A DNA stretch of 64,000 nucleotides from Candidatus Doudnabacteria bacterium. GTDB taxonomy: Bacteria; Patescibacteriota; Doudnabacteria; UBA920; O2-02-FULL-48-8. Shown one piece after another: positions 93 to 40,117 of this stretch. The notes beneath the pieces were generated by a model that had not been told where the DNA came from, made no database searches, and was given only the letters and a program-made list of their open reading frames with translations. Positions within the stretch are counted from its first letter, which is position 1. Every line of letters starts with the position of its first letter. Location: positions 20 through 64,019 of the forward strand of contig JACPFQ010000001.1 of NCBI GenBank assembly GCA_016182875.1, read 5' to 3'. A program made the translations under genes and the position numbers.

Positions 93-482
93 GTGCTGTC
101 CTGTAAGATGTCGCTTACAGGATATGGGAATGGGAGAGACGACATGAGAGTTTACTTGAGTGAGACCACTCCGACGTCAGGGCTTATCTCGATGCAGGAT
201 GCTGTGAATACGTCTCCTGCCGCGCGAGCCGTCCTGGCCGTGCTTCATTATTACCAGAAGCACGGCATGATCAGGGAGTGGTACACGCGCAACCACAAGC
301 CCCTCCCTCCGTGGGAGCTCCGGCGGATCATGGAGAGAACCGCATCTTGGACTCCCGAGGAAGTGACTCGAGTCCTCGCTGCGCGCGGCGGAATACCCCA
401 CGACCCTCCTGGTCCATGGGAAGAGCTCAACACTGCGATGCGCCAGGCGCTCGCGAACCAGTTAGACCGCGAGCAGCGCTAG
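93..482 (+). CDS. hypothetical protein, G+C-rich module 1 (probable start ATG 144 after GGGAGAG)
   Basis: ORF track; visibly G+C-rich versus host; Shine-Dalgarno-like GGGAGAG before the ATG at 144; no motif I recognise. Confidence 0.45.
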   Translation: MLSCKMSLTGYGNGRDDMRVYLSETTPTSGLISMQDAVNTSPAARAVLAVLHYYQKHGMIREWYTRNHKPLPPWELRRIMERTASWTPEEVTRVLAARGGIPHDPPGPWEELNTAMRQALANQLDREQR

Positions 483-517
483 TCAGACAAACCCAACCTT
501 CGGTCCAGCCGTCGGTT

Positions 518-553
518 GGTCGGTCGGCCCCAGCTGACCGTTTTTTCTTTTCT
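518..553 (+). terminator. putative rho-independent terminator of module 1 ORF
   Basis: short GC hairpin (cggtc...gaccg) followed by a TTTTTTCTTTT run. Confidence 0.35.
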
Positions 554-684
554 AGGTTTATAACTTAGAACGACAAAAATAATCTGGCCGGCTACCCTAT
601 TTGCCTGTCTCGGTAGGGGAGTCACAAGGCGGCCATTGAATAGGAAACAGTTACACAATAAAGAACAGAGAAATAAAAAAAACA

Positions 685-815
685 TTCGCAAAGATTTTAC
701 GACAGCGTAGGGAATATAGCACCAGCCGTGTCGTAACAATCTTTGCAATCTTTTGCGACACAGCATAAGAATCAGCAATAGTATACGTCGCAAAAGATAT
801 ATTGCGCGACTAGTT
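685..815. repeat. AT-rich cluster of nested inverted repeats (TTCGCAAAGATTTTACGACA / TGTCGTAACAATCTTTGCA; ATCTTTTGCGACA / GTCGCAAAAGAT)
   Basis: reverse-complementary arms read directly in the sequence; lies between two G+C-rich ORFs. Confidence 0.6.
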
Positions 816-889
816 CAATATCTCGATTTAGGCCTGTTTTGTCTATCCTCCCCGCCTAGCCATGCCACTATCGGACAGATATTTACGCT

Positions 890-898
890 TGGTATAAT
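890..898 (+). promoter_or_regulatory. candidate extended -10 element TGGTATAAT
   Basis: TGnTATAAT match about 140 nt upstream of the ORF starting at 1039. Confidence 0.25.
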
Positions 899-1038
899 CT
901 TTTTTCCAGTTTTTTTATAACCACTCCCCTCTGAGCATTAATCAGATGATCGTGGAACTGTTTTTCTTTCCTTTCGTCTGATATACTTCTCCTAAATGCC
1001 CTGTTCTATTTTGAAGGGCACCAGCAGGAGGTCACATC

Positions 1039-1860
1039 ATGGCATTAGCGGCTGCCGCTACGTCAACTCCGGTGCCAGCAACGATACTCGTGGTCGGCTT
1101 TAACGTTGATGAAGCCCTCGAAGCCCACTATCGCGGCAAGGTCTTGTTTCAGGAAGAACCGCATAGCTTGATGACTCCGCAGGCAATTCCGGTCGGAATT
1201 GAGGAAATCTGGCTGCGCAGCGGAGCAGGTGACTCGCACCAGCAGCGACTCGGCAACTTGGCGGATGCCGTGAAGGCCAAGTTCGACGGAACTGTGAGCT
1301 CATTGCCAGCTCTCCGCGACCGGTTGGAGACAAGGTTCCCTCCGCCGCCGGCACCACCCAAACCGCCCAGTCCGGAACTTCAAAGAATCCGCGCCGTGGC
1401 CACCAAGCCGGGCACGGTTGCAGACTGGGTTCGCCAGCACATGAGCTATCCCTGCGAACCAGGTCCTGAGTCAAAGCGGCTCCGTCAAATGGCTCGTGAC
1501 CGCTCATACGACGCCACTGAGGGCGCCATTTATCAGGCCGTTCTGAGCATCCTTGATCGCGCTGGGCTTAGAGAAAACACCCGAGAGGCCGGTTCGAATA
1601 ACGAGGTTCACAGCATTTTGACTGAGATCCAGTCATTGATTGCTTCAGAGACCGACCGGCACAACACGCTCATCGGTTCCCTGCGGTCGCTTCAGATGCA
1701 GGTTAAAGCATTTGAAGCCAACAGCGCGGTAATCGAAAGCCTCAGAACCGAAAATGCCGGTCTCAGGCGAGACCTCACGGCCGTAGAGGATCAAGGCAAG
1801 GCCACCCAGAGGCTGCTCGATGACATCCGAATCGACTTTTTTATTTGTTATATTTTCTGA
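1039..1860 (+). CDS. hypothetical protein, G+C-rich module 2 (Pro-rich linker PPPPAPPKPPSP, C-terminal coiled-coil-like region)
   Basis: ORF track; AGGAGG 8 nt upstream of the ATG; G+C-rich; its 3' end overlaps the iscS 3' end convergently by about 20 nt. Confidence 0.5.
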   Translation: MALAAAATSTPVPATILVVGFNVDEALEAHYRGKVLFQEEPHSLMTPQAIPVGIEEIWLRSGAGDSHQQRLGNLADAVKAKFDGTVSSLPALRDRLETRFPPPPAPPKPPSPELQRIRAVATKPGTVADWVRQHMSYPCEPGPESKRLRQMARDRSYDATEGAIYQAVLSILDRAGLRENTREAGSNNEVHSILTEIQSLIASETDRHNTLIGSLRSLQMQVKAFEANSAVIESLRTENAGLRRDLTAVEDQGKATQRLLDDIRIDFFICYIF

Positions 1861-38104: not shown

Positions 38105-38199
38105 AAAATTGGCATTAGTGGTTATTCGGCAGAGCTGCGCGTATCGTCTTGTGGTAGTGTTGAGCGTTAGCTTGCAGTTACTTCCCCTCCTAGGATAGG

Positions 38200-38320
38200 A
38201 GGGGAAGTAAAAGAATTGGGTTGGGCAGGGGAGGTACGGTTCAAGCTTGTACTCTACCCCACCTAACCTCCAGCCCCCGGCGGCAGGTGAGGGAGAGGGT
38301 TTCTATTCTAGGGGAGGAAT
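38200..38320. repeat. G-rich REP-like palindromes (CTTCCCCTCCTAGGATAGGAGGGGAAG; GGGGAGGTACGGTTCAAGCTTGTACTCTACCCCACCTAACCTCC; TTCTATTCTAGGGGAGGAAT)
   Basis: perfect 12-bp-arm palindrome; a 50-bp unit repeated at 41124-41172. Confidence 0.65.
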
Positions 38321-38345
38321 CCTGGCGCTTGCGGTTAAACGCAAG

Positions 38346-39713
38346 CTACTTAACGTCAGCGATATCGCCTTGCATGTAAAAGGCATTCTCATCCTTATCG
38401 TCATGCTTGCCGTCGAGGATTTCTTTGAAGCTCGCTATCGTATCTTTCAATGATACGTATTTGCCGGCACGCCCCGTGAAGACCTCGGCCACGAAAAATG
38501 GCTGGGACAAAAACTTCTGGATTTTTCGGGCACGAGCCACAGCCAGTTTGTCTTCTTCAGACAATTCTTCGATGCCCAGAATGGCAATGATGTCCTGCAA
38601 GTCCTTGTATTTCTGCAAGACCTTCTGCACGCCTCGAGCGACTTCATAATGGTCCTTGCCGACAATGTTCGGGTCCAAAACCGTTGAGGTTGAGTCCAAA
38701 GGATCAACTGCCGGGTAAATCCCTAATTCAGTTAAGCCGCGTGACAAAACTACAGTTGAGTCCAAGTGAGCGAAGGTAGTAGCCGGCGCCGGGTCAGTCA
38801 AATCGTCTGCCGGCACATATACTGCCTGAATCGAAGTTATTGAGCCATGTTTGGTTGAGGTGATTCGTTCTTGCAACTCGCCCATGTCAGTTGCCAAAGT
38901 TGGCTGATAGCCTACAGCCGACGGAATTCGTCCGAGCAAAGTTGACACTTCGGAGCCAGCCTGAGTAAACCGGAAGATGTTATCGATAAACAAAAGCACA
39001 TCCTGTTTTTCCTCATCACGGAAGTATTCGGCTAGCGAAAGGCCAGTTAGGCCAACTCGCGCCCTGATCCCAGGCGGCTCATTCATCTGGCCAAAAACCA
39101 GTGTGGTTTTGTTGAGCACGCCGGACTCTTGCATTTCTTTATATAAATCGTTTCCCTCGCGCGAACGTTCGCCAACACCAGCAAACACCGAAACTCCGCC
39201 GTGTTCAGCCGCTATATTGCGGATTAATTCGGTGATAATTACTGTTTTTCCAACCCCCGCTCCCCCGAACAAGCCGACCTTGCCGCCTTTGACTATTGGA
39301 GCAATCAAATCGATAACTTTTATCCCGGTCTCCAAAAGCTCGATTTTGGTGGATTGCTCATGAAACGCCGGCGCGGGCTTGTGAATCGAATATTTCTTGG
39401 CGGTCTTAACAGGCTCTTTGCCGTCGATCGGTTCTCCTAATGCATTGAACATCCTTCCCAGAGTTTCCTTGCCGACCGGAACCGAGATTGGAACGCCGGT
39501 GTCGGTTACTTCCAGGTTTCTTTCCAAGCCGTCGGTTGCGCCCATGGCCACAGTCCGAACCTGATTGGATCCGATGTGCTGGGCCACTTCCAGGACTAAC
39601 TTTTGACCGTTGACTATTGATACTTCGAGGGCGCTTTGAATTTCCGGAAGTTTGTCAGTAAACTCCACGTCGACTACTGCTCCAATGACTTGTGTGACCT
39701 TGCCTTTATTCAT
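38346..39713 (-). CDS. atpD: F0F1 ATP synthase subunit beta
   Basis: [33 protein letters not shown], full-length beta. Confidence 0.95.
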
Positions 39714-39773
39714 AAGTATTGTCTTCGCTTTAATAATATGGTAAATTTAATGGCTCAAAAGGAGGATGCCGAC

Positions 39774-39995
39774 ATGAAAGACATTTCTCGGCTTTCTGAC
39801 AGAACGCTACTGAACCGGTTCGAACGGGCGTGCGGCTGGCCCGCGTATAGGATGCCACGTGCGGAAGTGAGAAAACTGAAGCGTGAGCTTCTCCGTCGGC
39901 TCGGATCCAAGAAGAACGCGTCGGGGACCCGCAACGGAATGACGCCACTGCCGCCGGATTCATTCGACGCGGCGAATGCCGACAGCATTCGGTGA
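39774..39995 (+). CDS. hypothetical protein, G+C-rich module 6 (73 aa, Arg-rich)
   Basis: AAAGGAGG upstream of the ATG; G+C-rich; terminator follows. Confidence 0.45.
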   Translation: MKDISRLSDRTLLNRFERACGWPAYRMPRAEVRKLKRELLRRLGSKKNASGTRNGMTPLPPDSFDAANADSIR

Positions 39996-40013
39996 ACCCG
40001 ATGGGCGCTGCAC

Positions 40014-40058
40014 GTGCGAGTTGCTCACGCACTTTGTGAGCGACTCGCCTTTTTTATC
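40014..40058 (+). terminator. rho-independent terminator (GCGAGTTGCTCAC...GTGAGCGACTCGC plus CTTTTTTAT)
   Basis: 13-bp stem with one mismatch followed by a T-run. Confidence 0.55.
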
Positions 40059-40117
40059 TGCTAATGATCTTACTGCAATACGGGGAAGCATTACAGTATT
40101 CAGGGAGTACCCTTACT

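Follow-up and report, generated by a model that had tools for sequence, protein, structure and literature searches.

The morons of phage genomes are single genes that are transcribed independently, from their own promoter to their own terminator, and that stand out in G+C content from the conserved genes between which they are inserted; gene 15 of HK97 is an example (PMC3594210). In related genomes, the two flanking genes are neighbours, and the insertion, which can even be inside an operon, is taken as evidence of horizontal transfer (PMC3594210). Here, we analyse a window of 64 kb, the start of a contig from a metagenome-assembled genome (MAG) of Candidatus Doudnabacteria (Candidate Phyla Radiation, CPR, or Patescibacteria), in which six small G+C-rich units of much the same architecture are scattered among core genes (Table 1). 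The units are probably independent, horizontally acquired accessory genes, each a self-contained expression cassette, moron-like but chromosomal. Acquisition is favoured because their composition is deviant, because they carry strong Shine-Dalgarno (SD) sequences of a kind rarely used by the host, because units 4-6 are absent at orthologous sites in relatives, and because the boundaries of unit 4 are exact.

In comparison with phage morons, units 4, 5 and 6 lie between genes that are adjacent in related CPR loci (L016 or L106), their G+C content is deviant (z = 2.6-3.7 for the six units), and, as judged from sequence, each seems to have its own promoter and, in five of six cases, its own terminator. 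In contrast to morons, they do not reside in a phage or prophage; their flanks are core chromosomal genes, with no phage genes nearby. A strong SD in an SD-poor host is a trait of the units that lies outside the definition of a moron. Transferred genes undergoing amelioration offer a second comparison. In the model of Lawrence and Ochman, the synonymous sites of transferred genes ameliorate first. The units resemble such genes, and genomic islets, in their deviant G+C, absence from relatives, ORFan status and third codon positions nearer to the host. Nevertheless, genes that came from a donor of about 57-60% G+C and were never ameliorated would fit the numbers equally well and, unlike genomic islets, the units are single-gene, complete transcription units that are not beside integrases or the 3′ ends of tRNA genes. 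Integron cassettes are promoterless, carry attC sites and form arrays beside intI. The units are like them in being small, mostly with a single open reading frame (ORF), and foreign in composition, but they have predicted promoters, are dispersed over 40 kb and show no shared 3′ recombination site or nearby integrase.

An earlier note on this DNA had placed the units in a low-G+C genome. In effect, the window has 48.6% G+C (300-nt windows: mean 0.486, standard deviation 0.053, 95th percentile 0.57). The six regions are composition outliers, as the note had proposed: 0.554 for 1-560, 0.568 for 1039-1860, 0.597 for 7081-7541, 0.558 for 24660-25062, 0.564 for 34650-35378 and 0.583 for 39750-40058, against 0.486 for the window. 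The contrast, however, is 55-61% against 45-53% in the neighbours, and not the 60-65% against 40-48% estimated there. Nearly all 300-nt windows above 0.57 G+C are due to the units and to an IS110-like recombinase gene. The G+C content of the unit ORFs (0.567-0.608) always exceeds the maximum of the 57 host genes with which they were compared (mean 0.475, standard deviation 0.036, maximum 0.529); all z-scores for composition refer to these genes. Most of the excess is at codon positions 1 and 2, the unit proteins being rich in Arg, Ala and Pro and poor in Lys, with FYMINK z = -2.1 to -4.7 and an R/(R+K) of 0.64-1.0 against 0.40 in the host (z = 2.1 to 5.3). The G+C content at third codon positions (GC3) is mildly raised (0.60-0.75, z 0.6-2.7), and synonymous codon choice in the units fits a host model about as well as that of the host genes themselves. 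A check of codons and composition thus confirms a deviation, driven by amino acids, that GC3 shares only weakly.

The unit proteins, then, have the make-up of those of G+C-richer genomes, with third positions near the host, and this composition fits either old, partly ameliorated imports or donors of about 57-60% G+C. Since GC3 is near that of the host, recent transfer from very G+C-rich donors is argued against. Of the recent horizontal acquisition suggested by the note, acquisition is therefore favoured and "recent" is doubtful, as the third positions differ in this respect from those of the IS110-like gene. The latter is indeed G+C-rich (0.645), as had been noted, but it is not like the units, its GC3 (0.86) being far more deviant. 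Perhaps the units could instead be native, lineage-specific genes (orphan or fast-evolving) that owe their G+C content to Arg/Ala/Pro-rich, Lys-poor proteins and are expressed in an SD-dependent manner. Their GC3 and synonymous codon usage, close to those of the host, would agree with this; nevertheless, one bias in six unrelated proteins is more easily explained by their source than by their function, and, with the evidence on orthologous sites and homologues given below, a native origin seems rather unlikely.

The second line of evidence, and the one with the sharpest contrast, comes from translation signals. Upstream of host starts, the energy of the duplex with the anti-SD has a mean of -2.75 kcal/mol, with 69% of the genes weaker than -4 and 8% reaching -8, while random 17-mers from the window have a mean of -2.44 kcal/mol, with 0.6% at -11 or lower. 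With a mean about equal to that of the random 17-mers, the host is in effect independent of the SD. Even when the best of all candidate starts within the first 30 codons is taken, 67% of host genes are still weaker than -5 and 10% reach -8. By contrast, and as the note had claimed, the ORFs of all units start 5-9 nt past a near-consensus AGGAGG-type SD, with energies of -7.3 to -12.4 kcal/mol, which places these SDs among the strongest of the window. The loci of relatives used for comparison (L016, L017, L101, L103 and L106, all CPR) are as SD-poor as the host genes of the window, whereas control loci of Bacillus and Paenibacillus have 62-86% strong SDs in the same analysis. The SD contrast gives a second marker of foreign genes, one that does not depend on composition and could be used across CPR genomes. 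Host genes at -8 kcal/mol or stronger are only atpB, atpE, atpH, atpG and one doubtful TTG start; that the host uses the SD for some genes of the atp operon is a point in favour of native units. In addition, a -10-like box lies 3-12 nt upstream of the start in about 9 of 61 host genes, which are candidates for leaderless mRNAs.

Evidence of absence from relatives is available for three units. In a search of gyrB against contigs of one genome per species, the close relatives were CPR/Patescibacteria MAGs only (GyrB protein identity of 80% for L016 and 70% for L017), and the relatives compared at unit sites share 52-80% protein identity with the window. Core genes flank the units, namely iscS/nifS-like, pyrG, gyrB, secE, rmuC, tRNA genes and, assigned by Pfam, the ATP-synthase genes atpG, atpD and atpC; the window also has a CCA-adding enzyme and 6 tRNAs in all. 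The claim that conserved neighbourhoods are interrupted holds for units 4, 5 and 6: gyrB-secE for unit 4, in comparison with L016, and tRNA-rmuC and atpG-atpD for units 5 and 6, in comparison with L106.

The clearest case is that of unit 4. In L016, gyrB is followed by secE after a 75-bp spacer. A block made up of the promoter and the 5′ untranslated region (5′ UTR) hairpin of secE (GGCTTGC...TGGTATAAT...AAGCCCGnnAGGGCTTTT) is conserved, by alignment, in the window, L016 and L017. This block stands directly past the gyrB stop codon in L016, whereas in the window the two are 419 bp apart (24640-25058). This insert coincides exactly with unit 4, whose -35 box is at one edge and whose T-run is at the other, so that the boundaries of the insertion are defined to a few nucleotides. 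In detail, the block occupies 24576-24648 in the window, 8026-8099 in L016 and 4890-4985 in L017, with TGGTATAAT as the promoter and AAGCCCGnnAGGGCTTTT as the hairpin. L017 has another insert at this gyrB-secE site, a putative 277-aa gene in the opposite orientation that, from inspection of its sequence, looks endonuclease/exonuclease/phosphatase-like.

For units 5 and 6, the comparison is with L106, which is syntenic with the window from atpB to a UvrD-like helicase gene (the CCA-adding enzymes are 52% identical). The atpG-atpD spacer measures 466 bp in the window and 162 bp in L106, and the tRNA-Asp-rmuC spacer of L106 measures 129 bp; thus, the L106 spacers have no room for units 6 and 5, respectively. 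The window and L106 share a conserved promoter and leader of the tRNA operon, which in the window start at 35386, directly behind the terminator of unit 5, and set the right boundary of this unit. The absence of units 4, 5 and 6 at orthologous sites in the closest available relatives counts against native genes. As a separate observation, the tRNA-Met/tRNA-Met/tRNA-Asp block is inverted relative to cca and rmuC (window 34605-36190 against L106 11357-12117), and unit 5 sits at one junction of this inversion.

The sequence of the units does not seem to be a product of faulty assembly. Contigs from separate Logan assemblies of ten SRA runs (SRR12113383, -384, -385, -390, -420, -422, -424, -428, -430 and -431) were recovered through exact-protein look-ups; they cover units 1, 2, 3 and 5 and the right (gyrB) side of unit 4. 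The joins unit 1-unit 2-iscS, FapA/bactofilin-like gene-unit 3-PaaX-like gene, unit 4-gyrB and rmuC-unit 5 were all assembled again with 99.7-100% identity, the context of unit 3 in 7 separate assemblies and that of unit 5 in 5-6. The few differences between Logan contigs and the window are all outside the units. Exact look-ups of gyrB, of the IS110-like protein and of the ORFs of units 4 and 6 returned no record.

Assembly or binning chimeras, which the note had listed as one explanation, can be rejected on this evidence from 7-10 runs for units 1, 2, 3 and 5 and for the right side of unit 4. For the set as a whole, chimerism would agree with the fact that contigs of several assemblies break at about 37-48 and at 24673 and that unit 6 was not recovered independently. 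Nevertheless, the joins of units 1 and 2 with iscS, of unit 3 and unit 5 on both sides and of unit 4 with gyrB are identical across separate assemblies, the boundaries of unit 4 match the gyrB stop codon and the secE promoter within a few nucleotides, and tidy cassettes from promoter to terminator are not expected six times from chimeric joins, which makes this explanation hardly credible. The breaks themselves, just upstream of unit 1 and in the leader of unit 4, respectively, are found in several independent assemblies, and upstream of about 48 the sequence of the Logan contigs departs from that of the window and includes a perfect terminator hairpin (AAAACCCCGCCTTAAGGCGGGGTTTT). On this evidence, units 1 and 4 seem to vary between strains at their left borders.

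Table 1. Features of the window; promoters and terminators are predictions, and energies are those of the SD duplex with the anti-SD.
Feature	Position	Strand	Description
Unit 1	49..560	+	ORF 144..482, 112 aa, ORFan; ORF G+C 0.608, GC1/2/3 = 0.62/0.50/0.71; SD GGGAGAG, -7.3 kcal/mol
Unit 1 promoter	64-92	+	TTGACC(64-69)-17-TAATAT(87-92); consensus scan
Unit 1 terminator	493-540	+	two hairpins, then T-run
Unit 2	979..1860	+	ORF 1039..1860, 273 aa, ORFan; ORF G+C 0.568; SD AGGAGG, -11.5 kcal/mol; protein = NCBI HYV13_00005
Unit 2 candidate extended -10	~981-989	+	TGATATACT; read from sequence, not reported by the scan
Unit 3	7052..7541	+	ORF 7194..7502 (3b), 102 aa, CxxC...C protein; G+C 0.597, GC3 0.75; SDs of its two ORFs, -8.2 and -12.4 kcal/mol
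Unit 3 promoter	7052-7080	+	TGGAAA-17-TATATT with TG extension; consensus scan
Unit 3 short ORF	7105..7176	+	23 aa; uncertain
Unit 3 terminator	7505-7530	+	hairpin, then T-run
Unit 4	24640..25058	+	ORF start 24699; SD AAGGAGG, -11.4 kcal/mol
Unit 4 promoter	24640 and 24668	+	TTGACC(24640)-17-TATGCT(24668); consensus scan
Unit 4 terminator	25016-25050	+	16-bp hairpin; T-run abuts gyrB stop codon (25059)
Unit 5	34640..35385	+	ORF 34673..35332, 219 aa, predicted P-loop kinase; ORF G+C 0.567; SD AAGGAGGG, -11.9 kcal/mol; protein = NCBI HYV13_00210
Unit 5 candidate extended -10	~34641-34649	+	TGCTATATT; read by eye
Unit 5 terminator	~35335-35370	+	hairpin, then T7
Unit 6	39709..40058	+	ORF 39774..39995, 73 aa, Arg-rich; ORF G+C 0.59; SD AAAGGAGGA, -11.6 kcal/mol
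Unit 6 promoter-like	39709-39737	+	TTCATA-17-AATAAT; consensus scan
Unit 6 terminator	40016-40048	+	14-bp hairpin, then T6
IS110-like recombinase gene	60982..62283	+	likely start 61024, AAGGAG SD; not one of the six units
iscS	1841..3031	-	
atpD	38346..39713	-	
atpG	40180..41088	-	

The anatomy of the cassettes is given in Table 1. Consensus scans predict sigma-70-like promoters before units 1, 3, 4 and 6, while the extended -10 elements of units 2 and 5 (TGATATACT and TGCTATATT) were read by eye and are candidates. Hairpin-T-run terminators are predicted after all units but the one whose ORF starts at 1039 (unit 2), in agreement with the note; for unit 2, folding gives no terminator hairpin. 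The terminators of units 4 (16 pairs) and 6 (14 pairs) are the strongest terminator-like sites in their 20-kb scans. From stop codon to terminator, the gap is 10, 2, 2 and 20 nt for units 1, 3, 5 and 6, respectively, and 28 nt for unit 4. As these terminators have no A-run on their 5′ side, they appear, by sequence, to be one-directional. In unit 2, the open frame has a chance probability of P = 4e-5, the C-terminal part of the protein looks coiled-coil-like, and the ORF shares its final 20 nt with the 3′ end of iscS. In unit 1, an 11-bp hairpin lies at about 97-124, in the predicted 5′ UTR.

The six units are all on the plus strand, as had been claimed (binomial p = 0.016). This is a weak tendency and no general rule, since relatives show both orientations; similar units in L016, for instance, are co-oriented with their neighbours. 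Because the host genes at 9-60 kb are nearly all on the minus strand, units 4-6 are antisense insertions, unit 6 lying antisense between atpG and atpD.

Given their size, the small units (1, 3, 4 and 6) might be thought to be noncoding RNA genes with ORFs that are open by chance. G+C-rich islands can mark structured RNAs, at this composition the probability that frames of 73-112 codons stay open by chance is not very low (P = 0.03-0.07), and the folding of unit 1 is better than that of shuffled controls (z = -2.96), although this value is due in part to the 5′ UTR hairpin. By contrast, the fold z-scores of units 3, 4 and 6 are +0.78, -1.14 and 0.0, Rfam finds tRNAs only, and the ORFs are placed 5-9 nt past an SD and end 2-28 nt before a terminator. 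Codon-position G+C is also coding-like, and 3b has protein homologues and a confident structural model. The noncoding explanation is thus very improbable.

As for what the units encode, the note had found no nameable motif except in a Walker-A protein. This protein, that of unit 5, can indeed be placed, and the product of ORF 3b also has a conserved CxxC...C arrangement. Unit 5 has 14 homologues and keeps all 26 invariant columns of their alignment, including GMSxxGKS (here GMSNHGKS) and DTTGSV. The family profile matches shikimate kinases in the PDB (1kag, E = 1.1e-8; 3trf, E = 1.1e-6), and there is a weak Pfam match to AAA_33. By its Walker A motif and this profile, the unit 5 product is a predicted P-loop kinase of the shikimate-kinase superfamily. 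Two homologues are encoded directly upstream of the threonine synthase gene, thrC (L099 6001-6639 and L100 6001-6672), and the one in L100 follows genes for aspartokinase-homoserine dehydrogenase and asd. A position after aspartokinase-homoserine dehydrogenase and asd and before threonine synthase is usual for homoserine kinase. The family may thus represent a further homoserine kinase of non-canonical type and a distant relative of DvMF_0971, a shikimate-kinase-like homoserine kinase of Desulfovibrio that complements an E. coli thrB- mutant (PMC5764234). Like DvMF_0971 (NF040667; PMC5764234), the family appears to consist of P-loop kinases of the shikimate-kinase superfamily, with two homologues beside thrC; unlike it, its proteins are about 50 aa longer, and the copy in the window has no thrC or other threonine-pathway gene adjacent. 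NF040667 is the best NCBIfam match of unit 5, at 19.9 bits, with 33-47 bits for the homologues and a cut-off of 197 bits. The G+C content of the family tracks that of the resident genome (31% in a 40% genome, 61% in a 60% genome) and, consequently, the copy in the window, at 57% in 48.6%, looks imported, being out of place for a native gene.

ORF 3b has about 10 full-length homologues of about 100 aa, in which C26, C29 and C81 are invariant, although the alignment has no conserved stretch of 7-10 columns. The AlphaFold model of 3b has a predicted local distance difference test (pLDDT) score of 92.3, and a Foldseek search with it gave no match in the PDB (best E = 0.79). All homologues come from Doudnabacteria or other Patescibacteria. 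A family confined to Patescibacteria, with members in further Doudnabacteria MAGs, would suit native genes; nevertheless, the homologue in L101, a Doudnabacteria MAG, is at another locus, on the strand opposite to its neighbours, and only 31% identical to 3b of the window. It is monocistronic, with an AAGGAGG SD and a G+C content of 0.56 in a 0.41 genome. The 23-aa ORF of unit 3 is absent from this homologous locus, the one inspected. Another homologue, in L103, lies beside tRNA genes and a tyrosine recombinase gene.

For the other units, there is little to compare. Unit 2 has no match in Pfam, PHROGs or the PDB. A single-sequence model of unit 1 (pLDDT 61) gave no fold match and is too poor to be used. 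Units 4 and 6 have no relative in JGI metagenome contigs. The note had suggested toxin, immunity or anti-defence genes. However, no unit protein has a match above threshold in PADLOC, Pfam, PHROGs or NCBIfam, and one product is shikimate-kinase-like. The known families of toxin-antitoxin systems and of anti-phage defence or anti-defence were accordingly rejected as candidates, there being no match to any of them and a second ORF in unit 3 only.

Unit 4 poses a problem of its own. The ORF 24699..24920, given in the note as that of the module, probably covers only the 5′ portion of a gene with a frameshift, as judged from codon-position G+C. The SD-led frame is coding-like (0.68/0.45/0.75) only until about 24830; past this point, it is the +1 frame, which ends at 24987, that is coding-like (0.60/0.38/0.68). 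A G5 run (about 24825-24832) is found at the point of the switch, and with one G fewer a 95-aa ORF would result. The second frame is called by the Logan gene caller, and the G5 run has an identical sequence in that independent assembly. Unit 4 would then hold either a pseudogene or a slippage-dependent gene; the G5 run could mark a pseudogene, a phase-variable site or programmed slippage.

If the units were acquired, it may be asked whether they came together. One possibility is that they are remnants or cargo of one mobile element, or members of a common CPR mobile pool, possibly spread by the IS110-like or another recombinase. The six units and the IS110-like gene are all G+C-rich and on the same strand, the architecture of the units matches that of phage morons, similar cassettes recur in related CPR genomes, and the L103 homologue of 3b has a tyrosine recombinase as a neighbour. 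By contrast, the flanks of the units show no shared ends, att-like sites, terminal inverted repeats or target duplications; the direct repeats that flank them are short, AT-rich, promoter- or terminator-like strings at chance level. No two units share DNA beyond an 11-mer, and their proteins are similar neither to each other nor to the products of the G+C-rich ORFs of L016 and L017. Insertion sequences, miniature inverted-repeat transposable elements and transposon cargo were likewise rejected as candidates, as there are no inverted repeats, target-site duplications or repeated copies.

In addition, searches that find mainly close relatives gave none for any unit protein in IMG/VR, for units 1, 2 and 6 in GenBank phages, or for unit 5 and the IS110-like protein in PLSDB plasmids. 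The satellite or phage-derived gene set envisaged in the note is therefore not borne out: there is no shared DNA, no shared ends, no protein similarity and no relative in IMG/VR. The IS110-like gene, the only recombinase gene in the window, lies 21 kb away from the units, has no DNA in common with them and differs in GC3 (0.86 against 0.60-0.75). It is divergent, with weak Pfam matches (PF02371, E = 5.5e-4; PF01548, E = 0.012) and matches to transposases in PHROGs. As the units are also scattered over 40 kb among core genes, a common mobile element is improbable.

The architecture itself is not unique to this window. The same type of cassette recurs in four related CPR genomes (L101, L017, L016 and L106), so that the co-occurrence elsewhere raised by the note holds for the architecture, but not for the proteins as regards the G+C-rich ORFs of L016 and L017. 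The latter have an AGGAGG-type SD and a hairpin-T terminator and follow rplA in both loci. In L106, a unit of the same type at 13990-14390 has a AAGGGAGG SD, a 75-aa low-complexity ORF (G+C 0.65-0.68) and a clean terminator; it lies between tRNA-Arg and the UvrD-like helicase gene, co-oriented with its neighbours. Strong G+C outlier genes are found in the closest relatives of the window and in 0 of 12 other CPR loci, a small sample.

Independent acquisition of self-contained cassettes, which remains the preferred reading, would imply the following. Each cassette would consist of a sigma-70-type promoter, a short leader with a near-consensus SD, one ORF and, in five of six, a one-directional terminator. 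The donors would be richer in G+C (about 57% or more) and use SD-led translation, and the route of entry may be the uptake of foreign DNA by a presumably symbiotic CPR bacterium. Insertion would occur by non-site-specific (illegitimate) recombination into the spacers between host transcription signals. With their own start and stop signals, and placed between host units or antisense to them, the cassettes could be expressed separately without ending host transcripts. As the terminator hairpins have no T-run in the host direction, read-through from gyrB to secE and from atpG to atpD should survive. What the analysis shows directly is the composition of the units, their SD contrast and cassette anatomy, their absence from relatives, the exact junction of unit 4 and the agreement between assemblies; the direction and source of transfer, the mechanism of insertion, the expression of the units and the functions of their proteins are inferred.

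Several observations weigh against this reading. No donor was identified. Units 1 and 2 have only self matches among 5.8 billion protein clusters, and units 4 and 6 have no homologue in searches narrower than those for units 1 and 2. The promoters and terminators are consensus matches in sequence. GC3 and synonymous codons near those of the host mean either that the units are old and partly ameliorated or that they are native with unusual amino acids. The homologue of 3b in L103 has host-like G+C, and 3b, known only from Patescibacteria, may point to transfer within the CPR rather than from G+C-rich outsiders. Finally, as the relatives have only 52-80% protein identity with the window, units missing from them might instead have been lost there.

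Genomes of CPR/Patescibacteria are tiny and streamlined, and gene gain in them is poorly understood. The window shows such gain at the resolution of single genes, complete cassettes being placed between the promoters and stop codons of the host, in one case inside the ATP-synthase operon, with no visible mobility machinery. Taken alone, it adds no new mechanism, being a neat example of a process already well known, the horizontal transfer of genes with atypical G+C. A broader and rather speculative extension is that "chromosomal morons", SD-led and G+C-rich cassettes without recognisable mobility genes, enter the genomes of Doudnabacteria and their CPR relatives, themselves nearly devoid of SDs, again and again from a shared gene pool. 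This pool could be, for example, that of their host bacteria or of unsampled CPR mobile elements, and would perhaps be reached via DNA uptake. Were this true, cassettes would settle even in essential operons such as atp and form a distinct, differently translated accessory layer. If general, that layer could include factors for the interaction with host cells.

Some observations in the vicinity of the units are of a minor kind. A low-G+C island (0.36-0.39) at 7607-9780 directly adjoins the G+C-rich unit 3; its genes are those for a PaaX_M/Cas2-like protein of 197 aa and for two minus-strand ORFans of 277 and 124 aa. The stretch from the FapA/bactofilin-like gene to pyrG thus looks like a variable hot spot that holds foreign DNA of both compositions. 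Between population variants that are otherwise identical across 7 kb, there are tight clusters of 3 and 7 single-nucleotide polymorphisms at window positions 3181-3204 and 4089-4175, which look like short recombination patches (in ArfC-like and methyltransferase genes). Finally, a 58-nt near-palindrome (40117-40174) just past the atpG stop codon and a 12-bp hairpin (37607-37636) between cca and atpC are possible elements of mRNA processing or stability in the atp operon.

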